DNA from: Candidatus Blackallbacteria bacterium
Lineage (GTDB): Bacteria; Cyanobacteriota; Sericytochromatia; UBA7694
Direction of reading: 5' to 3'
Assembly: GCA_051715345.1 (NCBI GenBank)
Contig: JBPXJQ010000004.1
Span: 25,019-89,018, forward strand
Length of the DNA stretch: 64,000 nt
A model generated the notes under the pieces. The model was not told the origin of the DNA and did not search any database. It saw only the letters and a program-made list of their open reading frames with translations. Positions 129-40,926 of this stretch are shown here, piece after piece. Numbering within the stretch: the first letter of the stretch is position 1; each line of letters starts with the position of its first letter. A program made the translations under genes and the position numbers.

Positions 129-2087
129 ATGTTCGCGGGCATCGACACGGGTGGCACCTTTACCGATTGTGTCAGTTTTGACCAAGGCCAATTGCGCGTC
201 CACAAAGTTGTATCTTGCCCCGCCAATCCAGCCCAAGCGGTTTTAACGGGGCTTGATAGCTTGCAAACGGCAAGCCCGCACACGATTAAATCGCTGGTGC
301 ATGGCACAACTGTGGCCACCAATGCGCTTTTAGAACGCAAATTGGCGCGCACGGCCCTGATCATTACCGCCGGTTTCAAGGATCTGCTCGGGATTGGCCG
401 TCAAAATCGGCCCATGCTCTACGCCTTACACAGCCAACTCCCGGCTCCACTGGTGTTGGCTGAAGACATCTTTGAAATCGATGAGCGCATCGGCAGTCAG
501 GGAGAAATCATTCGGCCCTTGCTTCAAGCACAGATCCAAGCCTGCATCGCAGCATTGCCCGCCGGGATTGAAGCGGTCTCTCTCTGCCTGCTGTTTAGCT
601 ATCGCAATCCCTTACACGAACAATTATTGGCAGCAGCCCTGCGCGAACAGGGCTTTCGGGTTTCTGCTTCACATGAAATTTTGCCTGAATACCGCGAATA
701 CGAGCGCTTCTCGACCACCACGGCCAATGCCTGCCTCATGCCCATCATGCAAAAATATATGGCCTCACTTGTGGCGGGTTTGGGTGCCTTGCCCTGCCGC
801 CTGATTCAGTCCAATGGGGGCAGCTTGCGCCTGAATGAAGTGGCCGATAAACCTGTCAGTTCTGTGCTCTCAGGTCCGGCTGGGGGCCTGATTGGCGCCT
901 GGGAAACGGGCAAACGTCTGGGTGAGACACAATTATTGACCCTGGATATGGGCGGCACGTCTACCGATGTCGCCCTGCTGAATGGTCAATTGCCCCTGCA
1001 AACGGAAGCCGTGATCAGCGGTATACCAATTAAATTGCCCATGTTGGCCATTCATACCGTGGGTGCAGGCGGTGGCTCGTTGATCACCGTCGATGCTGGC
1101 GGAGCGCTGCGGGTCGGCCCAGAAAGCGCGGGTGCGGATCCGGGTCCGCTCTGTTATGGCAAAGGAAAAATGCTCACAGTGACCGATGCGCAGGTCTTTT
1201 TGGGCCGGATTCCCGCCTCACGCAAGCTCGGTGGCCATGTGGCGTTGCAAACCGCTCCTTTGCAGACGGCCTTTGAAACCTTGGGCCAAGAACTCGGACT
1301 CTCAGCCCAGGCGGTGGCATTGGGGGCCTTGTCGGTTGCCAATGCACGCATGGAACGGGCCCTGCGCGTGGTATCGGTCGAAAAAGGCCAGAACCCGGCC
1401 GAATTTAATCTCTTTTGTTTTGGCGGAGCAGGGGGATTACATGCCTGTGAACTGGCCGAGTCCTTGGGAATCCCCAAAATTACCATTCCCGCCCATGCGG
1501 GGGTCTTTTCGGCCTTGGGCATGCTCTATGCCTCCGAAATCCGCGACTATGCCCGCACGGTTTTGGGAGAAGTACACTGGCAGCAAAAAGAGGCACTGGA
1601 ATTGGCTTTTGAGCGGCTGCGGTCACAGGCGGAAGTGGATTTTCAGGCCGCCTGGCAGGATTTAAAGCTCCAAGCCAGCCTGGACCTGCGCTATCCGGGG
1701 CAATCGTATGAATTAAATCTGCCCTATTCTCCTGCCTCTGAAGCTGACTTTCATGCTTTGCATATGGAATTACACCATTTTTCCCGTCCCGAGCTCTCAC
1801 CTGAATTGGTGACCCTTCGCCTGCGTGTCAGCCGGGAATTGCCCCAGCCCGATCTCTTGCCGCCACCGGCACAGAACCGCGTTCTCAACGCACTCTTTAT
1901 TCAAAATGTGGGCTTTGCCCAAGGTTTGCTCGAGACCCCCTTTTACGAGCGGGCTGAATTGCCCACAGACGTTTACATTTCAGGCCCTGCAATCATTCTG
2001 GAAGACACAGCCACCACCTTGGTAGCTCCTGGTTGGCGGGCACGTCTTCATGCCTTGGGCCATCTCTGTTTGGAGCAAGACCTATGA
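129..2087 (+). CDS. Hydantoinase/oxoprolinase family protein, A subunit (HyuA-like)
   Basis: 652 aa. N-terminus MFAGIDTGGTFTDCV is the typical ATPase-fold start of hydantoinase A/5-oxoprolinase/acetone carboxylase beta. Length fits the family. Stop overlaps start of the B subunit (ATGA). Confidence 0.85.
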   Translation: MFAGIDTGGTFTDCVSFDQGQLRVHKVVSCPANPAQAVLTGLDSLQTASPHTIKSLVHGTTVATNALLERKLARTALIITAGFKDLLGIGRQNRPMLYALHSQLPAPLVLAEDIFEIDERIGSQGEIIRPLLQAQIQACIAALPAGIEAVSLCLLFSYRNPLHEQLLAAALREQGFRVSASHEILPEYREYERFSTTTANACLMPIMQKYMASLVAGLGALPCRLIQSNGGSLRLNEVADKPVSSVLSGPAGGLIGAWETGKRLGETQLLTLDMGGTSTDVALLNGQLPLQTEAVISGIPIKLPMLAIHTVGAGGGSLITVDAGGALRVGPESAGADPGPLCYGKGKMLTVTDAQVFLGRIPASRKLGGHVALQTAPLQTAFETLGQELGLSAQAVALGALSVANARMERALRVVSVEKGQNPAEFNLFCFGGAGGLHACELAESLGIPKITIPAHAGVFSALGMLYASEIRDYARTVLGEVHWQQKEALELAFERLRSQAEVDFQAAWQDLKLQASLDLRYPGQSYELNLPYSPASEADFHALHMELHHFSRPELSPELVTLRLRVSRELPQPDLLPPPAQNRVLNALFIQNVGFAQGLLETPFYERAELPTDVYISGPAIILEDTATTLVAPGWRARLHALGHLCLEQDL

Positions 2088-3655
2088 ATGCCACTGTAGA
2101 TCCCGTCCAACTCGAAATCTTTAAACACCGTTTTCGCGCCATGGCCGAGGAAATGGGCGCGGCCCTCTGCCGCAGCGCGTACAGCTCGAATATCAAAGAG
2201 CGCAAAGATTTTTCCTGTGCCCTCTTTGATGCCCAAGGCCAATTATTGGCCCAGGCCGAACATTTGCCGGTTCATCTGGGCTCCATGCCACTGTCTGTGC
2301 AGGCCGCGATTCAGGCCCTGCACTTTGAACCCGGCGACAGTGTTTTGCTCAATGATCCCTTTGCTGGGGGCACCCACTTGCCAGATATCACCATGGTCGA
2401 AGGGGTCTTTTTAGACGGCGAAAGCAGTCCGCGTTTTTATGTCGCCAACCGGGCCCACCATGCCGATGTCGGGGGAATGACGCCAGGCTCGATGCCACTG
2501 TCGCGTGAGATCTTTCAGGAGGGGCTGCGCATTCCGCCACTCAAATGGCGAAAAAGGGGACAGGTCGATGCAGATTTATTGGCCTTGATTCTCAACAATG
2601 TGCGCACGCCCCTTGAACGCGAAGGGGACCTGCTGGCCCAACATGCCGCCAACCAAATTGGCAGAAAGCGCCTGATTGCATTGTGTCAAAGCGTGGGCCC
2701 AGAAATGGTAAGCCAACAGGGTAGGGCGCTGCAGGCCTATGCCGCCCGGATGATGCGGGCCGTAATTGCAAAAATCCCAGATGGGGTCTATGCTTTTGCC
2801 GATGCCCTCGAAGACGATGGGCAGGGATCTGGCCCCCTGGCCATTGCAGTGACTCTCACGGTTCAAGCTGAAAACGCCAAAGTGGACTTTAGCGGCACGG
2901 ACCCCCAAAGCCGGGGCTGTGTGAACACCATTCTGGCGGTCACCCTCTCTGCCGTCTTTTATGTCTTTCGTTGCCTGCTCGACAATGAAGTGCCCTCCAA
3001 CAGCGGCTGTTTAGAACCGATTGAGGTCATTGCGCCGCTCGGCACTTTGGTGAATGCCCGCTTTCCCTCAGCGGTGGTGGGGGGCAATGTTGAAACTTCT
3101 CAGCGTCTGGTGGATGTTTTGTTGGGGGCCCTGGCCCAGGCTTTGCCAGAGCTGATTCCCGCTGCCAGCTGTGGCTCAATGAATAATTTAATCATTGGCG
3201 GCAGCGCAGGGAATCAGCCCTTTGCCTATTACGAAACCATGGGCGGGGGCCACGGTGGCGGGCCCTTGGGGGCGGGGGTTTCGGGCCAGCACAGCCACAT
3301 GACCAATACCCTCAACACGCCGATTGAGGCCCTGGAATTGGCTTTCCCCTTTCGCGTTTGGCGCTATTGCCTGCGCAGCAATTCTGGTGGAGCGGGGCAA
3401 TTTCCCGGCGGCGAGGGTCTGGTGCGTGAGCTGGAAGTGCTCTCGCATGCCTCTGTCACCCTTTTGACAGAGCGGCGGGTACGGGCGCCCTATGGCCTCA
3501 ATGGCGGTGAACCCGGTGGTTTGGGACGCAATACCCTGATTCAGGGTGGCAAAGAGACAGAATTGCCAGGCAAGGTGCAATTACAATTGGAGCCAGGGGA
3601 TCGGGTGCGGGTCGAGACACCGGGCGGCGGGGGCTGGGGGGCTCTCACTCCTTGA
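2084..3655 (+). CDS. Hydantoinase/oxoprolinase family protein, B subunit (HyuB-like)
   Basis: ORF 2033-3655. The likely start is the ATG at 2084 (MNATVDPVQLEIFKHRF...), coupled to hyuA by an ATGA overlap. Hydantoinase_B-like sequence throughout (…GGTHLPDITMV…GGGHGGGPLG…). Confidence 0.85.
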   Translation: MNATVDPVQLEIFKHRFRAMAEEMGAALCRSAYSSNIKERKDFSCALFDAQGQLLAQAEHLPVHLGSMPLSVQAAIQALHFEPGDSVLLNDPFAGGTHLPDITMVEGVFLDGESSPRFYVANRAHHADVGGMTPGSMPLSREIFQEGLRIPPLKWRKRGQVDADLLALILNNVRTPLEREGDLLAQHAANQIGRKRLIALCQSVGPEMVSQQGRALQAYAARMMRAVIAKIPDGVYAFADALEDDGQGSGPLAIAVTLTVQAENAKVDFSGTDPQSRGCVNTILAVTLSAVFYVFRCLLDNEVPSNSGCLEPIEVIAPLGTLVNARFPSAVVGGNVETSQRLVDVLLGALAQALPELIPAASCGSMNNLIIGGSAGNQPFAYYETMGGGHGGGPLGAGVSGQHSHMTNTLNTPIEALELAFPFRVWRYCLRSNSGGAGQFPGGEGLVRELEVLSHASVTLLTERRVRAPYGLNGGEPGGLGRNTLIQGGKETELPGKVQLQLEPGDRVRVETPGGGGWGALTP

Positions 3656-3773
3656 GCCTGATCTCATAAATGATGCCTGGCTTTCTCATTCGCTCTAGGT
3701 AGGTTGGGTTACAATAACTGTGTAGATTTTATTCCTGTTTGCATATTGAATGACCTTTTTCTAAGGGTGTTTT

Positions 3774-6700
3774 GTGGAATCTTTATTTGACCAACTCAAG
3801 CCTGCATTAATTCAACGCTTATTAAACCAATCTGAAATTAGTTCTAAAGACCTGGATAATTTACGGGTTGTCAACAGCTTTCAAGAGGGCAAATCTGGCG
3901 CTGAAGTGCTTGAGGTTGAAAGCTTTTTGGGGGTTTTCAAAATCGAAGGGCGCACTGTTTTAAAAATCAGCACCCAGAGTCCTTGGCCAGATTATATTTC
4001 TGAAGAAGAGCGTTACCAACATCTTAGCCAGATTCAAGCCCTGTTTGCAAAATTGGTTTGGAGCACTACTCTGAAGGTTTCAAGCGAAACTGGAGAATTG
4101 CAAAATTACACTTGCACCTTTTGGCAACGTGCGCATGACCAGCAACCACTCCATGAAATGAATCAACTGAATCAACTCACACAAACCGAATTTTCAGCCG
4201 CTTTAAAATGTGTGGGGCAACGCTTGGTAGATGCTTTTTCTCTCGATGCACAGCCTTATCTTAGAGATGTTTCTTTTCCCTCCCTTTGTGAAGGTGTTTT
4301 GGGTTATCGTCTGCATCCCAAACAAGGACGCATTTACACCTTTGTTCAAGACCATTTCCAAGTCTCTTGGAAAAAGCCGACCTTTCGCTGGGCAGGTGTT
4401 GATTTGCCAGATCCTTATTATTATGCACGGGAAGCCCAAAACCTCAAACTCAGTCGGGTCTATCAAGGTGATATACACGGCGATCTTCATGCTGGTAATA
4501 TTTTTGCTGTGCTTAAAAATGGGAATGCCCAAGATATTTGCCTGATTGATGCAGGCCTCTCGGCTTCAAAGCAGGTTTTGTTTTATGACCAGGCTTATCT
4601 TGAAGTGAGCTTATTGCTGCAATCTGTATTGGCCCAACAAGAGAAAGAAAAAGACTGGGTACAATATCTTGGCTGGCTGAGTGACCTGGGCAATTTTGAA
4701 TTGTCTGACTTGCATCAGAAAAAGGGACTTCACTCTGAGTATTTGCCACTTCTAACGAAGATTCAAGCTTTGCGTTCATCTTTTACGACTTTTTTAGAGA
4801 CAAAAAATAGCCTTTCAGAAGACTTACGCAAGCAGTATCACTTTCAACAAATCTGTGCAGCCTTAAATTTTTGCAATAAACCTTTGGATCAGATTTCCCA
4901 GACTATGTCTTCTGTAGAAAAGAACAACTGTCTGATGCAGGGAGGGGCACAAAGGCGATTTTCTTATCTCTATGCAGCATTTTTCTTAAAAAGTTATTTG
5001 GCAAAATATGGTGATGCCCCAGAAATTGTTGACTTGAAACAAACATTGACTCGTGACCCCAGCTATCTTTATAAACTGGAGCTGCGCAAGCGAGAGGCTT
5101 ATGAATCTATCTGGAGAAAGTGGGGAACCCCTGAAACCAATCAACAATTATCAATTAAAGAATTATCTCAGGATTATCTTCAGCTAAGAGCGCTCAAATC
5201 ATTTAACCGTGTGCCTTCGTCAGTGAGCCATTATTATGCGAATTTTTTTTATCGTTGGATTTTTGTAAAAAAATACCCGAATTGTCAATCTTCAAATGAA
5301 AAACTGCAAATGTTGGCAATGTTGGCTCTTGCTGTTCAAGATTCATTTTCTCATTTGTCTGAAGTTTTAAAACAAGATCCTCAAATTGACCTCATGGGTT
5401 TGTCAGATGACTTAAAAGGAATAGAACTGTCAAAAACTAATCCAGAAAACAGATTAGATTGGTTCTATTTTGCTTTTCTATTAATTGAAGATTGCCTGTT
5501 CTTGGAAAATGAAGAGCTTTTTTCTGAGTGGATCAAAAGAGTTGAAAATGCAGTTAATGATCTTTCATTAATTAAACATGAAAAATTAGCTTCGATATAT
5601 AATCAAATTCAATATTACAAAGCTATTAAATTTGCTTTAGATCAAAAAATTGAATCACTAAAAGAGCACTTAGAACAATGGAAACCAGAAGAAGATGACT
5701 GGATTGATGCTGAATGGTGCATTAAAAAAGCCTTTTTAAATACCACACTGTTTAAGAGAAATTATCAAGAGGGGTTTGATTTTTTAGATTCAGTACTCTC
5801 ACAAGCGGATAAATGGCCTTTTCAGGAACAAATGTATTTTTTTGAGGGCTATGATTTTATTGAAAAGTCCTTCAGACATTATTCTGATCCAATTGCCTAC
5901 ATTGGGGGAGAAAAAAAGAAAGAATTAAATCTCCAGGGGTTTGAAACATTTCAAACTTATCTGGAAAAAAATATCATTCCAGATATCGAGAAAAATAATC
6001 CTTATTTCAATCAGGTTCGTATCTTTTTAAGTGGACAAGATATTCACGTTACCAGACGCAATGCTTCTTTGAATGCAATGGTTTTATTGTTTCAATTGGG
6101 ATTTATGCCACAGGTTTTTAGACTTCAATTGATTTCTCATGAAACCTGGCACCGGGTGAATCTTTATTTATTTAAGGAATATCTCCAATTCTCTTTTTTC
6201 TATCTTTTGAGATATTTAACTGTCAATGAAATAGATGCAGAATGGGTTAGAATTCAACTACATAAGGGTTTATTTGTATACAACAATGAGAGCATTAATG
6301 AAAAAATATTTTCTTTGACTCTTTCAATTTATAAACACCTCCGTGGTGAAGATAATCGCTTGTTGATGCTGATTGTTGCTGTGTTATCTGAGTTTATTCT
6401 GCAGATACCTGAAACATTTTGGAATGAATTTTTTTGGGATATTTGGACTACATTTAATCATATAGATCATAGAAATGTACTGTATTCTCAATCCAAACAA
6501 GGCCCTTTTTTCATAATTAAAAATTCGCTATCGCGGATCACAGACCCCGTTCAACTCGAAGAATGTTTGTATGTTTTATTAGAAACAGATGGGGATTTGG
6601 ATGCGGACTATTATATAAGGCCCCAACTTTTATATGAAATTATTAAAAATGTTCTTTATCAATCCATCCCGTTAAATGAGCGATTAATAGCCAGAGTTAA

Positions 6701-8963
6701 TGATTTAGTATATAAAACATCTGATTTAAAAATAGCTTATTTTGCTTTTGCAAAACTTAGATTGATTGAGGATAGGTTCTTAAATAGCTTACACAAAGAA
6801 AAAATAGCGTCTCATATTCAATTATACACAGACTTTCCTAGCTTCTTCAGAAGTACCTTTGCCTTTTTGGTTTTGTATACTTCTGCTTATCCTGAAGCAA
6901 GAAAAAATGTACATAAATTAATTATTGAAAATGGTAGAAGTATTTGGTCAACAGGGATTGAAAAAAATAAAGATGGTTGGGCTAAACATCATTTTGGTGA
7001 GGGTTCAGTAAAATTACATGAATACAAATACAAACAATATACCTTTCCCCAAGGACTACAATTTAATCAAACAGAGATTTTAGAGTTGTATCAAGCTTTA
7101 AAAGAATCTATTCAGGAATTCAAACAAAGCCCTTTTGCTCCTTCTCAAACCCAACTATCGACTCGGCTCATTTTTATGAGTGGACTTGATTTTTCACTGC
7201 TCAAAGAAATGAATTATTTTATAGATGACTATGCTGATATCCTTAAATTGGAGCCAGACTATCAAACTTTAAAAGAGGAAATTATGGCTGGAATTCAGGA
7301 ACATGCTCCTTCTTCAGGACGGCCTTCCGATTTGACTTCCGATAACCCAAATACAGTCCAAGAAGGTATTTCTCACTTGAGAGATATGTTGTTGGAACAC
7401 GATTTTGAGAATTTCACAGATTATTGGACAACTCTTCTAAGTAAAATTCTTCTTCAACAAGAACCACTTTTACATACTTCTTTAGAGTTAATGTCATATT
7501 GGCTGGTTTATTACAGAAATGAAGAAGCTATAAAATCATCACTTTTTCAAAATTTTTATTTGCAAATATTGGATAAATATCAAGCAAATAAACCTACTTC
7601 AGATTATCTAGAAAAAATTGAGTTGGGTTTGGTTAAAATATCCATGGTTCTTCGCTTTTGGAAGAAAAACTCAACTGGTATTGATTACTTTTTGGGATTG
7701 AGAAATACAAGTAAATATGAAAGTGTTAAGAATTTACCAGAACTTGATAATCAAGATATCTACCGACCAGAATTGTTTCCCACAATTGTTGATTTTTTAA
7801 AAAATGTCCAAACCACTGATTTTTTTCTGAGTGGAGTTTCGATTCAAGGCTTTAAATCTTTTTCAAACCATCATAATATCAATATTAAACTTCGACCTCT
7901 TAATGTTTTGGTTGGTGCCAATGGAGCGGGGAAAAGCAGCTTCTTTAAATTTTTAGAATTTGTTCAAGAATTCTCTCAAATGCCAATGGACAGTTTAAAT
8001 GCAAAAATGGGTTCAATCAGTGATTTGCTTTATTATGGCACTAAACAAACCGATTCATTGACTGGCAGTTTGACTTTTATTAAAAGTGAGCAAGAAAGTC
8101 TTTCTTACAATTTTCAATGCAAACCAACTGAAGATTTTAAATATTTTTACTTTGAGTCTGAGAGCATTACTTTGTCTTTGTTGGACCAAAACCAAACTCT
8201 CTATGAAAGTAAGAAACCACAGTCCGATTCTGTTCTTTTTACCCATGCTACACAACCGTGGGCAAAAATGTTGCGCGAATTGTTAGGCTCATTGGAACGT
8301 ATTCATATCCCAGATACATCTCTTTCCAGCAAACTCAGAGATGAAGCTAACCTTTATGATAATAAACATTTGGCCTCAGATGGAAAAAATTTAGCGGCCT
8401 TTCTCTATGCCCTAAAAAATTCACCGGAAGAGAAAGCACATTACAAACAGATGATTCGTCTGATTCGTCATGCCTTTCCTCAATTTCAAGAATTTGTGCT
8501 TGAACCTAATTTTGAAGATGCCAAAATTCAACTTCAATGGCGAGAAGAGGGTTCTGAATATGTCTTTGGAGCCCATCAGGCTTCAGATGGCTCATTGCGT
8601 TTTATGGTGCTCACCGCACTCTTGATGTCTCCTCCACACCGCTTGCCACGGATCTTAATTCTCGATGAGCCAGAACTGGGACTTCACCCAAAGGCTTTGG
8701 CAACCTTGGCCAATATGATCAGTTTGGCTTCGCAATATTGCCAAATTTTAATCGCCACCCAATCCAGCGAGTTATTAGACCATTTCGAAGCGGATGATCT
8801 CGTGATTGTGGATCGTACCCGTTTTGATCTTCAGACCAATGAGATGAAAGACAAAGCCTTTACTGTGATGACCCGTAAAAATTCTGAAGAATTGGCATCG
8901 TGGTTAGAAGACTATTCGCTCAGTGAACTCTGGAACAAAAATGTTCTTGGGGGTAAGCCATGA
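3774..8963 (+). CDS. Giant multidomain protein: N-terminal protein-kinase/APH-like domain, ~1000-aa helical low-complexity spacer, C-terminal OLD/AAA_21-type ABC ATPase (putative antiphage/abortive-infection effector)
   Basis: 1729-aa ORF with a GTG start preceded by AAGGG. N-terminus has a Gly-rich loop (EGKSGAEVLEV), a VLKIS lysine and the catalytic loop IHGDLHAGNIF (about nt 4470-4499, HGDxxxxN as in APH/choline-kinase/ELK folds) followed by LIDAGLS (a DFG-equivalent DxG). C-terminus has a Walker A at LNVLVGANGAGKSSFFKF (about nt 7914-7940), ASDGSLRF and a Walker B/D-loop RILILDEPELGLHP (about nt 8652-8690), then ILIATQSSELL. This is the canonical layout of AAA_21/OLD-family ATPases. The coding DNA is strikingly AT-rich relative to the flanks. 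Confidence 0.8.
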   Translation: MESLFDQLKPALIQRLLNQSEISSKDLDNLRVVNSFQEGKSGAEVLEVESFLGVFKIEGRTVLKISTQSPWPDYISEEERYQHLSQIQALFAKLVWSTTLKVSSETGELQNYTCTFWQRAHDQQPLHEMNQLNQLTQTEFSAALKCVGQRLVDAFSLDAQPYLRDVSFPSLCEGVLGYRLHPKQGRIYTFVQDHFQVSWKKPTFRWAGVDLPDPYYYAREAQNLKLSRVYQGDIHGDLHAGNIFAVLKNGNAQDICLIDAGLSASKQVLFYDQAYLEVSLLLQSVLAQQEKEKDWVQYLGWLSDLGNFELSDLHQKKGLHSEYLPLLTKIQALRSSFTTFLETKNSLSEDLRKQYHFQQICAALNFCNKPLDQISQTMSSVEKNNCLMQGGAQRRFSYLYAAFFLKSYLAKYGDAPEIVDLKQTLTRDPSYLYKLELRKREAYESIWRKWGTPETNQQLSIKELSQDYLQLRALKSFNRVPSSVSHYYANFFYRWIFVKKYPNCQSSNEKLQMLAMLALAVQDSFSHLSEVLKQDPQIDLMGLSDDLKGIELSKTNPENRLDWFYFAFLLIEDCLFLENEELFSEWIKRVENAVNDLSLIKHEKLASIYNQIQYYKAIKFALDQKIESLKEHLEQWKPEEDDWIDAEWCIKKAFLNTTLFKRNYQEGFDFLDSVLSQADKWPFQEQMYFFEGYDFIEKSFRHYSDPIAYIGGEKKKELNLQGFETFQTYLEKNIIPDIEKNNPYFNQVRIFLSGQDIHVTRRNASLNAMVLLFQLGFMPQVFRLQLISHETWHRVNLYLFKEYLQFSFFYLLRYLTVNEIDAEWVRIQLHKGLFVYNNESINEKIFSLTLSIYKHLRGEDNRLLMLIVAVLSEFILQIPETFWNEFFWDIWTTFNHIDHRNVLYSQSKQGPFFIIKNSLSRITDPVQLEECLYVLLETDGDLDADYYIRPQLLYEIIKNVLYQSIPLNERLIARVNDLVYKTSDLKIAYFAFAKLRLIEDRFLNSLHKEKIASHIQLYTDFPSFFRSTFAFLVLYTSAYPEARKNVHKLIIENGRSIWSTGIEKNKDGWAKHHFGEGSVKLHEYKYKQYTFPQGLQFNQTEILELYQALKESIQEFKQSPFAPSQTQLSTRLIFMSGLDFSLLKEMNYFIDDYADILKLEPDYQTLKEEIMAGIQEHAPSSGRPSDLTSDNPNTVQEGISHLRDMLLEHDFENFTDYWTTLLSKILLQQEPLLHTSLELMSYWLVYYRNEEAIKSSLFQNFYLQILDKYQANKPTSDYLEKIELGLVKISMVLRFWKKNSTGIDYFLGLRNTSKYESVKNLPELDNQDIYRPELFPTIVDFLKNVQTTDFFLSGVSIQGFKSFSNHHNINIKLRPLNVLVGANGAGKSSFFKFLEFVQEFSQMPMDSLNAKMGSISDLLYYGTKQTDSLTGSLTFIKSEQESLSYNFQCKPTEDFKYFYFESESITLSLLDQNQTLYESKKPQSDSVLFTHATQPWAKMLRELLGSLERIHIPDTSLSSKLRDEANLYDNKHLASDGKNLAAFLYALKNSPEEKAHYKQMIRLIRHAFPQFQEFVLEPNFEDAKIQLQWREEGSEYVFGAHQASDGSLRFMVLTALLMSPPHRLPRILILDEPELGLHPKALATLANMISLASQYCQILIATQSSELLDHFEADDLVIVDRTRFDLQTNEMKDKAFTVMTRKNSEELASWLEDYSLSELWNKNVLGGKP

Positions 8964-9676
8964 ACTGGAAACGTCTACATATTCTGGCAGAAGGGCCCAC
9001 AGAAGAACAATTTGCCAATGATGTAATTAAACCGCATCTTTATCAATATGCGGTAAATTCCTCAGTTCAATGCATTGTAACCAAACGTCTACGACAAGGT
9101 CCTGACAAAAAAGGTGGTTTAACTGATTACAGAAAGGCGCGGGAACATCTCGTTCGTTTGATGAATGAACATAAGGATACGAATTGTTTTTTTACGACGA
9201 TGTTCGACATCTATCACATGCCATCCTCAACTGAGCCAGAAAAAAGTTTTCCTGGTTATGCAGAGGCCATGAGAGAAATAAAAACATCTCATTTTGAAAA
9301 TGGCTTAACCATTCTGGCTCAAAAAATGAAAGAAGATCTTCAGCCTGAGGTCCCAAGAGTAGATCGACTACTTCCTTATTTTCAGTTACATGAATTTGAG
9401 GCTTTGATTTTTGTAGATCTCAGCTATCTCCGATTCCATTATCCGGTGGTGTGTGGCGATCTGCAATTTGAGCGGCTCGAACAAGCCTTACAATCTGCTC
9501 AAGGCGATCCCGAAAAAATCAATCATGAAAACGGGCCCGCAGCCAGAATCATTGAACAAATTAAAACCTACAGAAAACCAACAGGGGCAATGATAGCCCA
9601 AGATATTGGATTGTTTCGTCTGAGAGAAAAATGCCATTTCTTTGATCTCTGGCTGACATCCCTTGAAAAATTGTAA
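8960..9676 (+). CDS. DUF4276-like protein (TOPRIM-like partner of AAA_21 ATPases)
   Basis: 238 aa. Its start overlaps the stop of the giant ATPase gene (ATGA at 8960-8963). The N-terminus LHILAEGPTEEQF resembles the conserved EGxTE start of the DUF4276 family, which I recall as typically 187-238 aa and usually adjacent to AAA ATPases. The assignment is from memory of the family and was not searched. Confidence 0.65.
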   Translation: MNWKRLHILAEGPTEEQFANDVIKPHLYQYAVNSSVQCIVTKRLRQGPDKKGGLTDYRKAREHLVRLMNEHKDTNCFFTTMFDIYHMPSSTEPEKSFPGYAEAMREIKTSHFENGLTILAQKMKEDLQPEVPRVDRLLPYFQLHEFEALIFVDLSYLRFHYPVVCGDLQFERLEQALQSAQGDPEKINHENGPAARIIEQIKTYRKPTGAMIAQDIGLFRLREKCHFFDLWLTSLEKL

Positions 9677-9797
9677 AGATGACAGGCTCTCCCTACTGAC
9701 CTACTTGGCTTGAAGCCGTATCTTAGTTACCATAGGTAGTGGTACGCCCTGGGCCTGGTTCCAGACAGCTTATTCCCGATAGAAGCAACTGTCCGAA

Positions 9798-11030
9798 TTG
9801 AAAACCAGTCGCCCACAAATTGAAAATATGCACACATTCTTGTTTCTTTCCAAGCGCGATTTGATGCGCCTTTCCCCCATCTCTCTTGGCCTTTTATTGC
9901 TTTCCCTCACCCCACTTGTGGCCTGCGCCCCAGAAGAAGTCAAACAATACCGGGTTGCCAAAGTCTCAGCAGCCCCCGCCATGGCCCTATCAAATGCCTC
10001 AAACACGGCTTCAAGTGATGCCTCCGCAGAGGAAGGCCTGAGTTACACTGCCCCCGCCGATTGGCAGAAAATGCCCGCAGGTGGCATGCGCAAACTCTCA
10101 TTCAGCCTCAAAGGCGGTGGGGATTTCTCGCTGGTCACCCTACCAGGTAATGCCGGCGATCTCAAAGGCAATCTCAACCGCTGGCGCGGCCAAGTCGGCC
10201 TGCCGCCCCTGGAAGATCCCGCTGAGATAGCCAAAAGTGTCAGGGCTTTCACCGTTTCTGGCAGTGAAGGCATTGCCCTCGAACTCTATGCCCCCGAAGG
10301 CCAACCCGACAAAGCCATGCGCGTGGTGCTGGTCGAAAAAGAAGGCGCCAATTGGTTCTTTAAACTGGCAGGCCCCCGTGAATTGGTCAAGGCCCAGGCC
10401 AAAGCCTTTGAGACCTTTCTGGCCTCTGTCAAAATCAAAGCAGGAGCCTCGGCCCAAATGCCCGCAATGCCTGAGGGGCAGAGCATGCCCGGTCAGCCGC
10501 CGGTTGCTCCTAATTCGGACCCCAATTCAGCTCCCAATTCGGACATGAACGCGCCGGGTTTACCCAAAATGGAACCCCAGGCCACCAACACAAAACTCAC
10601 CTATACCCTGCCCGCCAGCTGGAAAGAAAAACCCGCTGGCAATATCCGTGTGGCCTCGTTTGAGGTCAAACAGGGCGAAGCGATTGGCGATGTTTCGATC
10701 GTCAGTTTGGCCGGTGATGGCGGCGGTCTGCTCAACAATACCAACCGCTGGCGCAAGCAGCTTGAAATGGTGCCCACCGATCAAGCGGGCCTCAAAAACG
10801 CAGTCAAAGATATTCAAATAGCCGGCCACAAAGGCTATTTTATGGCCCTATACAGCGGCATGGAAGGCCAGGGTATGTTGGTCGCCATGGTCGAGCAGGG
10901 TGGCCAAACCTGGTTTATTAAAATGGTCGCACCGGCCAAATTGATCCAAAGCCAAGAGAGCGACTTTCTGGCCTTTGTAAAGTCGATCGCCTTTCATGAC
11001 TCATCCCAAGTCAAGAGGCAAGCCACATGA
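9798..11030 (+). CDS. Secreted lipoprotein with an internal domain duplication (hypothetical)
   Basis: The likely true start is M at about 9864 (MRLSPISLGLLLLSLTPLVAC, lipobox LVAC). Two homologous about 150-aa halves (…YTAPADWQKMPAGGMRKLSFSLKGGGDFSLVTL…NRWRGQVGL… and …YTLPASWKEKPAGNIRVASFEVKQGEAIGDVSIVSL…NRWRKQLEM…). Stop overlaps the resB start. Confidence 0.6.
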   Translation: MKTSRPQIENMHTFLFLSKRDLMRLSPISLGLLLLSLTPLVACAPEEVKQYRVAKVSAAPAMALSNASNTASSDASAEEGLSYTAPADWQKMPAGGMRKLSFSLKGGGDFSLVTLPGNAGDLKGNLNRWRGQVGLPPLEDPAEIAKSVRAFTVSGSEGIALELYAPEGQPDKAMRVVLVEKEGANWFFKLAGPRELVKAQAKAFETFLASVKIKAGASAQMPAMPEGQSMPGQPPVAPNSDPNSAPNSDMNAPGLPKMEPQATNTKLTYTLPASWKEKPAGNIRVASFEVKQGEAIGDVSIVSLAGDGGGLLNNTNRWRKQLEMVPTDQAGLKNAVKDIQIAGHKGYFMALYSGMEGQGMLVAMVEQGGQTWFIKMVAPAKLIQSQESDFLAFVKSIAFHDSSQVKRQAT

Positions 11031-12235: not shown

Positions 12236-13935
12236 AAGCCCTGGAAAAATACCTTCCGCTCTTGCTTGCACTGATCTGTCTTTTGGCTTTTGGCCGCAGT
12301 ATGGTCGAAAAACCGTATGCCAAACAGGCTTTTGATTTAAATGCCTTTAGCCAAATGCCCGTTTTGCACAAGGGCCGGGTTCAACCCTTGGATTCGTTTG
12401 CCCGCAACAACCTGCTCTTTATTTCGGATAAACAGATGTACAGCGACAGTGAGGGCAAAAAACAACCCGCTGTGCAGTGGTTGGCAGAACTGATGAGTGG
12501 CCGCCCCGAATCGCGTCAGCACAAGATTTTCCGGATTGAACATGACGATGTGCTCTCTTTGATGGGGCTCAAGCCCCGCGAAGGTCTGCGCTACTCGTTG
12601 GATGAATTGGCGCCCAAATACCCGGCCCTGATTCAACAGGTGCAAATGGTCTTTCAAAAGCCCGATGCCAGCCGCGATTTGGTGGATCTCAAAACAATTG
12701 AGCTTTACGAACAGCTCGAGGTTTTTCGCCAGATCATGGCCTTTGAAGTCCCTTTGGTTTTGCCTGCCTTAAAAGCCGAGGGCAATGATTGGCTGCCGCT
12801 GGGTGGAGAAAAAAGCGACCTCAACCGCAGCAATTATGCCAATGCCTGGTATAAAAGCCTCAAAGCCTACCAAAACAACGATATTGTCCTGTTTAATGCC
12901 ACTACCGCTGAATACCTTCAGGGCCTCAAAAGCTCACACCCCACGCTGTTCCCCAAATTACAAATTGAGCAGCGTTTCAATTTGAGCATGCCCTTTTACC
13001 AGGCCATGGTCCTGTTTGTCCTGGCATTTTTGCTCAGTGTCTTTGGCTGGATGTTTTGGGGCAAGGCCCTGAACCGCTCAGCCTTTGGCTTGGTCGTGAT
13101 CGGACTTGTGATCTTTACAGGGGCGCTACTGACGCGCATGTATTTGCAGGGCCGCCCGCCAGTCACCAATTTATACTCTTCGGCAATTTTTGTCGGTTGG
13201 GTTGCGGTTCTTATGGGCCTGGGAGTGGAGTGGTTCATGAAAAACGGATTTGGCACAATCATGGCCTCAATCACGGGCTTTTGTGCGCTTTTGGTGGCCC
13301 ACAATCTCGGCAGTGGGGGTGATACCCTCGAAATGATGCGGGCTGTTCTCGACACCAATTTCTGGCTGGCCACCCATGTCACCACTGTGACCATGGGCTA
13401 TTCCGCCAGTTTCTTGGCTGGATTCATGGGCCTGATCGTCATCATCATGGGGGTCTTAACCCGCAAATTGGACAAAGATCTCTACACCAAGATCTCGGCA
13501 ATGATCTACGGTACAGTGGCATTTGCCACCCTGTTTAGTTTTGTCGGCACCGTGCTGGGTGGCATCTGGGCCGATCAGAGTTGGGGCCGCTTTTGGGGCT
13601 GGGATCCCAAAGAAAACGGCGCAGTCATGATCGTGCTTTGGAATGCGATTATTTTACACGCCCGCTGGGGGGGGCTGGCCAAAAAACGCGGAATTGCGCT
13701 CTTGGCCATTGGAGGCAATATTGTCACAGCCTGGTCGTGGTTTGGCGTAAACATGCTGGGAGTGGGTTTGCACTCTTATGGTTTTACCGATAAAGCCTTT
13801 ATTGGCTTAGCGGGATTTGTGGGCCTGAATTTGCTTGTGATCTGGTTGGGAACCATTCCCGAAGAACATTGGCGCAGTTTTAAAGGCCCGCAGGCAAATA
13901 ACAAGGGATCTCTGAGCGATGTCTCTCTGAAATGA
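12232..13935 (+). CDS. ccsA: Cytochrome c-type biogenesis protein CcsA/ResC with a ~250-aa N-terminal extension
   Basis: The C-terminal half is polytopic and carries the CcsA-like Trp-rich WGRFWGWDPKENGAVMIVLWNAIILHARWGG motif. The N-terminal part has a signal/TM segment then a soluble region. Confidence 0.8.
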   Translation: MKALEKYLPLLLALICLLAFGRSMVEKPYAKQAFDLNAFSQMPVLHKGRVQPLDSFARNNLLFISDKQMYSDSEGKKQPAVQWLAELMSGRPESRQHKIFRIEHDDVLSLMGLKPREGLRYSLDELAPKYPALIQQVQMVFQKPDASRDLVDLKTIELYEQLEVFRQIMAFEVPLVLPALKAEGNDWLPLGGEKSDLNRSNYANAWYKSLKAYQNNDIVLFNATTAEYLQGLKSSHPTLFPKLQIEQRFNLSMPFYQAMVLFVLAFLLSVFGWMFWGKALNRSAFGLVVIGLVIFTGALLTRMYLQGRPPVTNLYSSAIFVGWVAVLMGLGVEWFMKNGFGTIMASITGFCALLVAHNLGSGGDTLEMMRAVLDTNFWLATHVTTVTMGYSASFLAGFMGLIVIIMGVLTRKLDKDLYTKISAMIYGTVAFATLFSFVGTVLGGIWADQSWGRFWGWDPKENGAVMIVLWNAIILHARWGGLAKKRGIALLAIGGNIVTAWSWFGVNMLGVGLHSYGFTDKAFIGLAGFVGLNLLVIWLGTIPEEHWRSFKGPQANNKGSLSDVSLK

Positions 13936-13992
13936 GCATTTCGCCTTTTTGCTCCCTGCTGTTATAATTCCAACTGAGGAAAACGCAATTTC

Positions 13993-14916
13993 ATGGATCT
14001 CAAAGCCCTCTTAAAAACCCACGAACAGGTTGCCAGCAAACGCAAACACTTGGGTGCTCAGGCCTGTGAACAAGGCTATAGCTTGTTGATCAAAGCAGAA
14101 CAAACTGGGTTTAAAGATAAATCCCTGCTAAAGTCTGCTTCAGATGCTTTTATTCGTGCAATTCGCCAAGAACGCGGCAATGCCGAATCCTATGTCGGAT
14201 TGGGCTATTTGCTCATGTTGATTTCCGACTTTGAAGGCGCAGAAAAGCAACTCAAAGCGGCCCTGCAATTTGCGCCAAATAACTCTGATGCCAAATCCCT
14301 GCTGGAGTTTAGCCAACACAAACGTTTGGGCATTCCACTGAAATCCGCTCAGCCCGAAACGGAAGAGTCCGAACAATTGTTTGTTCATTTTGTGGAACGG
14401 ATTCAGACTGCAACCCGAAAAGCCAAGGCCTCTCAACTCAAACAGCCCCTGATGGACACAGCACAATTGCAAGTTTTGGTCAAAGAGCACGGTGAATCCC
14501 AGTGGCGTTACCAACAATTGGAGCAAGAATTGGCTGAATTGGATCTGGCTTTGCCTGCCGATTCGCTGAAGGGACTATTAAACAGCTTTGCCGATCTGCT
14601 GCGCCATCAGACCAAAATGATTCAGACCTCTTTGACCTTTCAGAAGTTGGAGCAGGCCTTGCTAAAGCAAATGGAACGGGCACGGGACAGCATCGTCAAT
14701 CTTCCCCATTTGCGCAGCAAAGAGGCCATCCAGGACTTTGAGCAGAATACCCTCGAAGATCTGCTTGACCACTGCGATAAACTGGCAGACCAACTGGATT
14801 CTATTTCCGATCAGGGCCACGATATTCGATCGCTCGAAAGACAATACGAGACATTGGTACAGATGATTGAAAACCTGCAGGAACAAATCGACGGTCAGCT
14901 CGAACAGGGTTTTTAG
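13993..14916 (+). CDS. Hypothetical protein, TPR-like N-terminus plus coiled coil
   Basis: 307-aa ORF, helical and Gln/Leu/Glu-rich. Convergent with tetR with a 4-nt stop overlap. Confidence 0.5.
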   Translation: MDLKALLKTHEQVASKRKHLGAQACEQGYSLLIKAEQTGFKDKSLLKSASDAFIRAIRQERGNAESYVGLGYLLMLISDFEGAEKQLKAALQFAPNNSDAKSLLEFSQHKRLGIPLKSAQPETEESEQLFVHFVERIQTATRKAKASQLKQPLMDTAQLQVLVKEHGESQWRYQQLEQELAELDLALPADSLKGLLNSFADLLRHQTKMIQTSLTFQKLEQALLKQMERARDSIVNLPHLRSKEAIQDFEQNTLEDLLDHCDKLADQLDSISDQGHDIRSLERQYETLVQMIENLQEQIDGQLEQGF

Positions 14917-39942: not shown

Positions 39943-40761
39943 CTAAAGCAAACTGGTGATGCGCGCCCGCAGACGGTACATGGCCTCTTGAACCTCGTCT
40001 TCGCTCTTCATCAAAGGGGCAATCCGGTCCATCAATTTATCTGCCACAGCCAATAATTGATTAAAGCCAAATTTTTGAAAGCGATCAAAGCCCAATTCAA
40101 GCAGGGACTCTTCCAACATTTGATGGCTCGATTCAATCCCTACAAATTCCATCACAATGCTCTCCAGAGAATCGATGGGCGTGAGGCTGACAGTGGTACG
40201 CAAATCTTCACCCGAAACCCCCACCAAAAAGGCCTTGTGTTTGACCATCTCGTTCATAAATTGCAGGGCATCCCACTGATTAAACGGACACATTTCAAAG
40301 AAACGCGCGACCGTAAACGAACGCGGCAATTGTTTGGTAAAATCGGGCAAGCGCCCTTCAGAAGCCATTTGTAAAGCTTTATCTGAAAAACGCAAACCAC
40401 TGGTCAAGTGAGGTAATTTTTCACGCAATTTGGCAAATTCATCCATATAGCGGGCACTTTCCATCAATACCGCATCGAGAGAGACGTTGATATTTGGAAT
40501 GGGCAATTCTGCAGTTGTCAGCCCAGTCATCTGAAAATGCCCTGAAGCCCACCAGCCTATCAAGCGGTAAAGGGCATCTACGCCCAATAAATGATTTAAG
40601 CGACCGTGAGTGATGGTCCCTTTATCAAAATAGACAAAGGCCTCTTGGGCCACTTCTTTGACCTCCACGCGAAAGAGACAGTTCTTTTGCTCCAGCTTAA
40701 TAAACTGTAATAAATTAAACAGTGAAATCGAGGCCAATTCGCCCTCAAGCAAAACTGTCAT
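39943..40761 (-). CDS. DUF4388-like domain protein
   Basis: The N-terminal GELASISLFNLLQFI…G…H…G…ALYRLIGW…G.F pattern is reminiscent of DUF4388. Not searched. Confidence 0.5.
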   Translation of the reverse strand: MTVLLEGELASISLFNLLQFIKLEQKNCLFRVEVKEVAQEAFVYFDKGTITHGRLNHLLGVDALYRLIGWWASGHFQMTGLTTAELPIPNINVSLDAVLMESARYMDEFAKLREKLPHLTSGLRFSDKALQMASEGRLPDFTKQLPRSFTVARFFEMCPFNQWDALQFMNEMVKHKAFLVGVSGEDLRTTVSLTPIDSLESIVMEFVGIESSHQMLEESLLELGFDRFQKFGFNQLLAVADKLMDRIAPLMKSEDEVQEAMYRLRARITSLL

Positions 40762-40926
40762 AATTTAGTGTCCCAACACGCAAACATCTACAAAGGTGAG
40801 AGAAACGGAGGTCATGGTTGAACTAATTTCATCTTGGCTTGGCTTAATATGCCCATGTATAAATTACCCATGGTCTCATTGTTACATGCAATTTAGCTGA
40901 AAAAAAGTACGGATTTACTTTTTGTA

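Follow-up and report, generated by a model that had tools for sequence, protein, structure and literature searches.

A two-gene unit of low GC content

We analyzed a stretch of 64,000 nucleotides from the genome of a Candidatus Blackallbacteria bacterium (contig JBPXJQ010000004.1, positions 25,019 to 89,018), which we refer to as the window. Near its start, at positions 3656–9797, lie two genes of the same orientation, one encoding a large multidomain protein and the other a DUF4276 protein. Their neighbors are housekeeping genes: hydantoinase A/B (hyuA, hyuB) on one side and a lipoprotein gene followed by resB and ccsA on the other. An initial annotation had described this locus as an AT-rich island without mobility genes, flanked by an imperfect direct repeat and recently acquired by horizontal transfer. 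The coordinates of all features are summarized in Table 1.

The compositional part of this description was confirmed by sliding-window GC analysis and by codon composition. The region has a GC content of 36.9%, compared with 51.7% in the remainder of the window. In 500-nt windows, the GC fraction is 0.55–0.61 up to position ~3750, drops to 0.30–0.46 over both genes and returns to 0.55–0.59 past 9750, so that a sharp step is present near both borders. The extreme value reported for line 5581–5640 (12 G+C in 60 nt) was reproduced. The trough is itself structured: shoulders of ~0.42 (3774–4929 and 8231–9676) surround an inner floor of 0.327 (4930–8230), which lies more than 10 standard deviations below the 3.3-kb windows elsewhere in the sequence (0.512 ± 0.017); all other 3.3-kb stretches have a GC content of at least 48%. 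A second, much shallower dip (0.47 vs. ~0.52) occurs at 39000–42000. At third codon positions, the GC fraction (GC3) is 0.31 in the large gene and 0.34 in the DUF4276 gene, compared with 0.61–0.62 in hyuB, resB, and ccsA. The bias therefore sits in the choice of codons and not in amino acid content alone, and it is alien to the host. In agreement with the initial annotation, no tRNA or tmRNA was found in the whole 64 kb, and domain annotation revealed no integrase or transposase in the neighborhood; an Rfam scan of the window also identified no family.

Table 1. Features of the two-gene unit and its borders (window coordinates; aa, amino acids)
Feature	Position	Strand	Remarks
Upstream intergenic region of the two-gene unit	3656..3773	+	Holds the left motif, 3696–3712
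Gene for the 1729-aa multidomain protein	3774..8963	+	Sole long open reading frame here
N-terminal protein-kinase-like (choline kinase/aminoglycoside phosphotransferase-type) domain, aa 1–439	3774..5090	+	Pfam TCAD9, AlphaFold2 (AF2)/Foldseek
Swapped cassette, aa ≈386–1486	≈4930..8230	+	End of kinase-like region, whole solenoid, N-terminal ATPase half
Central all-α solenoid (TPR/HEAT-like), aa 440–1345 (~900 aa)	5091..7808	+	AF2 model
C-terminal ABC-type ATPase, aa 1352–1729	7827..8963	+	PADLOC HEC-01A, Pfam AAA_21
Gene for the 238-aa DUF4276 protein (Toprim-like putative nuclease)	8960..9676	+	Pfam DUF4276, PADLOC HEC-01B
Downstream intergenic region	9677..9797	+	Holds the right motif, 9733–9745, and a weak terminator-like hairpin, 9706–9718

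Domain architecture of the encoded proteins

The large protein has homologues over its full length with 36–94% identity. The NCBI entry MBT9544200.1, which is 94% identical overall, is annotated only as ‘AAA family ATPase [Candidatus Sericytochromatia bacterium]’. Three parts can be distinguished. The N-terminal domain scores 50.3 bits against Pfam TCAD9 (PF19974), above the gathering threshold of 40, and its AF2 model (pLDDT, predicted local distance difference test, 88.7; predicted template modeling score, pTM, 0.88) adopts a bilobal kinase fold. Choline kinase α and putative aminoglycoside phosphotransferases were the best Foldseek matches of this model (probability 1.0, TM score 0.4–0.5). 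The sequence contains a G39-x-S-G-A-x-V loop, K64, a catalytic loop of the HxDxxxxN type (H235-G-D237-L-H-x-G-N242) and the metal-binding D259 within LIDAG; H235, D237, N242, and D259 are invariant among 25 diverse TCAD9-type sequences. Judging from these intact catalytic residues, the domain is apparently active. Conserved catalytic residues and a score above the Pfam threshold are what the protein has in common with TCAD9 proteins, but it carries an ABC ATPase in place of their STAND NTPase, and no other component of a ternary system is present. TCAD9 stands for ‘ternary complex associated domain 9’, which presumably refers to the ‘ternary’ NTPase-centered conflict systems described by Kaur et al. 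2020 (PMC7159879), a paper whose text does not use the term TCAD.

The central part was modeled with confidence as an all-α solenoid (pLDDT 85.8, pTM 0.73), which we presume to be a ligand or sensor domain. It is followed by an ATPase that matches the PADLOC model HEC-01A (PDLC04175) over profile positions 6–362 of 363 (E-value 6.1e-105) as well as Pfam AAA_21 (6.8e-25). Walker A (G1381ANGAGKS), signature (A1603SDGSLRF), and Walker B (I1627LILDEPE) motifs are invariant in six homologues, and the H-loop position is occupied by T-Q (1662–1663).

The large gene ends 4 nt into the DUF4276 gene, stop and start overlapping in ATGA, and the two genes are translationally coupled. The DUF4276 protein matches Pfam DUF4276 (1.2e-34) and PADLOC HEC-01B (PDLC04188; 3.5e-50). 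Six acidic residues (E11, E15, E16, D83, E145, and E147) are invariant across six orthologues, and a classical DxD motif is not evident in its sequence. One study places DUF4276 in the Toprim superfamily and identifies it as a homologue of Mad4, from the MADS defense system (PMC12065111); the Toprim assignment rests on that study and on the structure predictions of Payne et al. (bioRxiv 10.1101/2024.01.29.577857).

The locus is older than the divergence of related lineages

If the two genes had been inserted recently, related genomes should show hyuB next to the lipoprotein gene, and a corresponding alignment had been proposed as a check. We found the opposite: the locus occupies the same site, between hyuB and the lipoprotein-resB-ccsA operon, in all five related Candidatus Sericytochromatia lineages recovered (besides the window, haplotypes L001, L131/L132, L133–L136, and L081). 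In four of the five, the locus is complete and has the same GC trough, and the gene order hyuA-hyuB-large gene-DUF4276-lipoprotein-resB-ccsA is found in all contigs that are long enough. The fifth is L001, a metagenome-assembled genome (MAG) of Candidatus Sericytochromatia and the closest genome in GTDB. It is 87% identical to window positions 283–4624 and leads from hyuB straight into the large gene, within which its contig ends. Because the same genes, similar in composition, occupy this position in relatives, recent acquisition of the locus is refuted. A HyuB scan of genome contigs yielded one close relative, L001, all other matches being at most 61% identical and not syntenic. In a ResB scan of metagenome contigs, no match exceeded 56% identity, and none of nearly full length exceeded 47%. 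Neither scan revealed an empty site; at the distant ResB loci, the lipoprotein-resB-ccsA operon is kept and hyuB is not adjacent.

We then compared synonymous divergence (dS, substitutions per synonymous site, by the method of Nei and Gojobori, NG86) in the island and its flanks (Table 2). The proteins encoded in the flanks are 91–98% (L131), 87–97% (L133), and 78–92% (L081) identical to those of the window. In most comparisons, dS of the island ends is of the same order as that of the flanks or lower. The order of relatedness to the window, L131 before L133 before L081, is kept, and the N-terminal part of the large gene follows the order of the flanks, L001 included. Taken together, these results show that the island was in place before these lineages diverged and that its composition has not been ameliorated. 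A sharp GC trough thus need not indicate a recent insertion, since this one held its site while neighboring genes reached a dS of ~0.6–1.0.

Table 2. Synonymous divergence between the window and related haplotypes
Comparison	Flanks	Large gene, N-terminal	Large gene, C-terminal	DUF4276 gene	Core
Window–L131	0.26–0.34	0.10	0.10	0.14	0.15
Window–L133	0.44–0.50	0.25	0.39	0.12	1.40
Window–L081	0.61–1.05	0.49–0.81	0.97	1.36	

The low values within the island could be due to gene flow, to constraint on synonymous sites or to a bias of NG86 at skewed composition. Against L131, dS is 0.10–0.15 throughout the island, compared with 0.26–0.34 in all five flanking genes; here, gene flow, a constraint that maintains AT-richness, and estimator bias are all candidates. 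For the DUF4276 gene, the window and L133 (L133:10001–10717) are far closer than their flanks, whereas L133 and L081 differ by a dS of 1.29, above the flanks. This suggests that the DUF4276 end of the island experienced separate gene flow.

Low GC might also be a maintained property of a native gene, imposed by expression, silencing or amino acid composition, and not a foreign mark. The persistence of the trough while the flanks diverged to a dS of 0.6–1.0 would agree with this, the low dS of the island would fit synonymous constraint, and the residues F, Y, I, N, K, and M make up a large share of the solenoid (33.8%). But a GC3 of 0.25–0.38 against 0.61 in the host is not explained by amino acid content, the same pair is AT-shifted in unrelated hosts, and the family has a patchy distribution. 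As an account of where the composition came from, we therefore regard maintenance in a native gene as quite improbable, although it is compatible with a horizontal origin as the reason for the lack of amelioration. A foreign origin of the island remains plausible from its codon composition, the patchiness of the family and the AT shift seen elsewhere; for the locus as a whole, only the claim that the transfer was recent has to be given up.

We also inspected both intergenic regions, in which the initial annotation had seen an imperfect direct repeat and possible insertion scars. The motifs are located exactly at 3696–3712 and 9733–9745, but their similarity is at chance level. The longest exact word common to both regions is the heptamer TAGGTAG, and a shared word of at least 7 nt occurs in 43% of shuffles of the two regions (P≈0.43). 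The best gapped local alignment between them reaches a score of 8 (shuffle mean 8.5), and the motif pair is missing from the repeat families detected in the window. In L081, the equivalent sites read TGGGTGG and TGGGTAT, so the word common to both regions is not preserved there. We conclude that the repeat proposed earlier is a coincidence. From ~3675 on, the upstream region is ~95% identical to L001 and L081, exceeding the conservation of the hyuB end, and the downstream region is ~82% identical to L081 along its full length. A likely ribosome-binding site (AAGGG) lies ~8 nt ahead of the GTG start of the large gene. Matches to σ70-like promoters are no more common in the upstream region than in shuffled sequences, and promoter and terminator scans gave nothing beyond chance.

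A recent, mobile-element-like insertion of foreign DNA, which left the TAGGTAG-containing motifs as scars of the target site or of recombination, would account for the sharp GC step at both intergenic regions, for the alien codon usage and for the heptamer common to 3696 and 9733. It is contradicted by the frequency of such words in shuffled sequences, by the two sites in L081, which do not share the word, by the lack of an integrase, transposase or tRNA, and by the presence of the locus in four other haplotypes with dS of the island ends at or below that of the flanks. None of the hallmarks of an integrative island (integrase or transposase, tRNA or att site, direct repeats, empty site) was found, and we consider this explanation hardly credible.

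A central cassette of the large gene has been exchanged

Although the locus as a whole is old, one internal part is not. Nucleotide identity between the window and L133 is at least 0.80 up to position 4928, falls to 0.32–0.77 over ~4930–8228 and rises again to 0.87–0.98 from 8229 onward. In steps of 100 amino acids, the two proteins are 96, 94, 86, and 79% identical over aa 1–400, 47% over aa 401–500, 29, 35, 23, 27, 24, and 23% over aa 501–1100, 59, 51, 62, and 60% over aa 1101–1500, and 90, 93, and 93% over the last segments (aa 1501–1729). Hence, alleles that are only 20–35% identical over aa 500–1100 are embedded between flanks of 87–97% identity. In this core, nonsynonymous divergence (dN) is 0.56 and dS is 1.40, compared with a dS of 0.25–0.39 in the adjoining parts of the same gene and of 0.44–0.50 in the flanks. 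The cassette (3.3 kb, 32.7% GC) coincides with the inner GC floor, and its exchange produces the sharpest part of the trough.

The distribution of the two core types conflicts with the phylogeny of the flanks. Type A is found in the window and L131 (97–100% amino acid identity over most of the core). Type B is shared by L133 and the more distant L081 (78–90%), although L133 is closer to the window by its flanks. The same picture emerges from a comparison of six family members: no two are closer than the window and P0002, its syntenic orthologue, in the kinase-like domain (84%) and in the ATPase (75%), but with 27% identity they are among the most distant pairs in the core, where the window is no nearer to P0002 than to non-syntenic members. 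As to a donor of type A, a word-indexed search with aa 386–1486 returned only the protein's own cluster, and the exhaustive HMMER search with aa 1–1200 gave no closer core.

These results show that the central cassette exists as two deeply diverged alleles, which have been exchanged by homologous recombination. Most simply, type B would be the ancestral form of the clade, and type A would have replaced it in the lineage of the window and L131 via the conserved sequences on either side. The recency claimed for the locus thus holds for a replacement within the large gene, but is limited to this internal 3.3-kb cassette.

Could the core have diverged in place, by diversifying selection on the sensor and without recombination with a foreign allele? 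What varies is the solenoid, presumed to bind the ligand, and immune sensors often evolve fast; also in line with this idea, the pair P0004/P0005 lacks such a contrast, so the family is not uniformly hypervariable. However, identity changes abruptly at ~4930 and ~8230, and synonymous sites are saturated in the core (dS of 1.40) next to values of 0.25–0.39. In addition, the L133 core groups with that of the distant L081 and not with the window and L131, and the core of the window is as far from its syntenic orthologue as from non-syntenic proteins. We regard divergence in place as very unlikely and favor exchange by recombination.

Two further observations concern the cassette. Relative to L131, the window contains a second, smaller mosaic patch at the junction of solenoid and ATPase, where identity is 0.79–0.85 over ~450 nt (7479–7928, aa ≈1235–1385). 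The L001 contig, which derives from a co-assembled MAG, covers L001:11739–12589 of the large gene (window 3774–4624) and ends ~300 nt before the left breakpoint of the cassette. A break near the cassette would be expected if both alleles coexist in the sampled populations.

A rare protein family of modular architecture

The frequency of this architecture was estimated with a word-indexed search over 5.8 billion clusters and an exhaustive HMMER search over 1.84 billion representatives. The former revealed six full-length relatives (36–100% identity). The latter, with aa 1–1200 as query, recovered the same few and in addition the 1290-aa protein P0009, which lacks the ATPase; two further haplotypes (L131/L132 and L133–L136) were found through look-ups. 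The 1350-aa N-terminal fusion was found in about nine distinct proteins among ~15 billion. By comparison, homologues of the ATPase domain alone number more than 6500; those nearest to it are stand-alone ATPases of 375–380 aa with 37–42% identity. About 170 proteins have only the kinase-like domain in common with the large protein, often together with STAND/NB-ARC NTPases and TPR repeats.

Three proteins of ~1200 aa with an N-terminal SIR2_2 domain contain the solenoid too: its profile aligns from end to end with their C-terminal ~850 aa (E-values, at library size, of 9e-55, 3.5e-36, and 1e-27). The same module therefore follows a kinase-like head in some proteins and a SIR2 head in others. Within the solenoid, conservation is highest in a loop, EEIMAGIQEHAPSSGRPxDLxxxNPNTVxEG (aa 1168–1200, nt ≈7275–7373), which could be a phosphorylation or interaction site; its core, L-x-S-D…T-V, is recognizable in the SIR2-headed relatives as well. 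P0009 (L128:257–5577), which consists of the kinase-like domain and the solenoid, adjoins a gene for a group II intron reverse transcriptase (RVT_1 and GIIM). To test for splitting by the intron, we looked for a remnant of the ATPase next to it, but found none on its short contig.

A DUF4276 gene lies directly 3′ of every full-length homologue. Wherever flanks are available, including unrelated contexts, the pair lies 10–20 GC points below them, and the distribution of the family is patchy. On contig L082 (labeled Cyanobacteria_JACYMC01), the pair is located between a WYL/PLD/MZB/helicase cluster and a cluster of DarT, ADP-ribosylglycohydrolase, MmeI-type restriction-modification, and SNF2 genes, which is a typical defense island. 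In L084, genes for a Schlafen-like ATPase and a ParA/CbiA-like ATPase (L084:7808–10008) precede the pair and may encode extra components of that variant; the second of the two overlaps the start of the large gene by 8 nt. Searches of phage genomes and IMG/VR contigs gave no relative, and a plasmid search gave a single match confined to the kinase-like domain.

Relation to known systems and proposed function

The closest described system is HEC-01 (‘Hma-embedded candidate 01’), an ABC ATPase paired with a Toprim-like protein, the pair being embedded in Hma defense systems (Payne et al., bioRxiv 10.1101/2024.01.29.577857). The C-terminal 378 aa of the large protein match HEC-01A end to end, and the second gene is an adjacent, co-oriented HEC-01B. 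HEC-01A models, however, have 264–464 positions, and instead of a stand-alone ATPase of ~260–460 aa we found the ATPase as the tail of a 1729-aa kinase-solenoid protein. Likewise, PARIS (AriA/AriB; PMC11464382) and Mad3/Mad4 of MADS (bioRxiv 10.1101/2023.03.30.534895) combine an AAA_15/21-type ABC ATPase with a partner of the Toprim superfamily. The ATPase matches the respective models more weakly (AriA, 2.9e-25; mad3, 1.1e-25), and DUF4276-associated ATPases share an ATPase tree with PARIS. Three features set the present system apart: the partner is recognized by HEC-01B models and DUF4276 only and is not of the DUF4435 (AriB) type; a methyltransferase and other MADS genes are lacking; and the ATPase is part of a giant N-terminal fusion. 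The system is thus an HEC-01/OLD-like ATPase-Toprim pair with a giant kinase-solenoid fusion, rare and uncharacterized.

In its layout, the large protein also resembles DSR2, in which helical repeats behind an N-terminal SIR2 NADase capture the phage tail tube protein and thereby activate the enzyme (PMC10981675, PMC11850899). No SIR2 match was found here, the N-terminus being kinase-like. The SIR2-headed relatives of the solenoid (P0066, P0022, and P0142) match the PADLOC Dsr2 model best. A homology to the C-terminal domain of DSR2 based on these matches was considered and withdrawn, as the C-terminal parts of P0066 and P0022 alone miss the model.

We consider it probable that the two genes form a conflict module of horizontal origin that has long been resident at this site and is most likely directed against phages, and whose central cassette has been exchanged by recombination. 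A function in defense is inferred from the L082 defense island, the Schlafen-like neighbor in L084, the occurrence of HEC-01 in Hma systems and the homology of DUF4276 to Mad4. Starting from the domains, intact catalytic residues, gene coupling, defense-island association elsewhere and cassette exchange described above, the module might work as follows. The solenoid would act as an exchangeable recognition module and bind a protein or ligand derived from the invader. Binding would be relayed to the ABC ATPase head, which would transduce the signal and license or release the Toprim-like DUF4276 nuclease as the effector, by analogy to OLD and PARIS. In the latter, a phage protein is sensed by the ATPase scaffold, which sets the Toprim nuclease free (PMC11464382). 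Because the kinase-like domain occupies the position of SIR2 in homologous solenoid proteins, it might serve as a second effector or regulator.

Several observations weigh against this interpretation. In the window, the pair is not part of a defense island, its neighbors being metabolic and cytochrome-biogenesis genes, and in E. coli the HEC-01 type system protected against none of the phages tested (bioRxiv 10.1101/2024.01.29.577857). Solenoid residues 440–1345 have no sequence match in Pfam, PADLOC or PDB, and their structural matches are generic TPR/HEAT folds, with DSR2 only at rank 25. The role of the kinase-like domain and the signal relay are purely conjectural, drawn by analogy. As to the history of the island, its dS is about half that of the flanks in several comparisons, so strict vertical inheritance of its ends is not proven, and no empty site was found that could date the original acquisition.

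The persistence of the locus at one site without neighboring defense genes and the failure of HEC-01 to protect against phages could also be explained if the pair were a selfish, toxin-antitoxin-like addiction module, or a system against plasmids or other mobile DNA, that is kept because its loss is costly. The Pfam text for AAA_21, ‘putative AbiEii toxin, Type IV TA system’, points in the same direction. A sensor-like extension of 1350 aa with an exchangeable cassette, however, is ill-suited to a simple addiction module, the L082 pair resides in a defense island, and the solenoid also occurs in SIR2-effector proteins, the SIR2 domains of which give the best scores with the DSR2 model. We therefore consider an addiction or anti-plasmid function unlikely and retain the anti-phage conflict module as the better explanation.

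Going further, the family might represent a previously undescribed class of modular immune receptors, in which the solenoid is swapped between kinase and SIR2 heads, sensor alleles circulate as specificity cassettes and AT-richness is actively maintained; this extension is tentative and, in our view, somewhat doubtful. Irrespective of it, the combination of a kinase-like domain, a solenoid and an ABC ATPase with a DUF4276 Toprim partner is very rare and publicly labeled only as an AAA family ATPase. It joins OLD/PARIS-like ATPase-Toprim modules with DSR2-like solenoid sensors and the TCAD9 kinase-like domain of STAND NTPase proteins. The two natural cassette alleles in near-identical backgrounds provide ready material for mapping recognition by the sensor. 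HEC-01-type systems are without demonstrated activity, and a sensor-fused variant might reveal their trigger logic.

Neighboring genes

The lipoprotein gene downstream of the island (9828–11030) encodes a protein with a lipobox (LVAC) and an internal duplication, without a Pfam match or a CxxCH motif. Homologues with 25–39% identity precede resB-ccsA in many distant metagenomic loci, and the lipoprotein appears to belong, as a conserved component without annotation, to the operon for system II cytochrome c biogenesis. Between ccsA and a gene for a 307-aa protein, L133 and L134 harbor an additional gene for a 715-aa Ser/Thr protein kinase (L133:15064–17211); in the window (13935–13993) and in L081, a short intergenic spacer takes its place. 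On the other side of the island, the mechanically called open reading frame of hyuB starts at a TTG at 2033 and overlaps hyuA by 55 nt (2033–2087), while gene calls in relatives give a protein of 523 aa, corresponding to a start near 2084.

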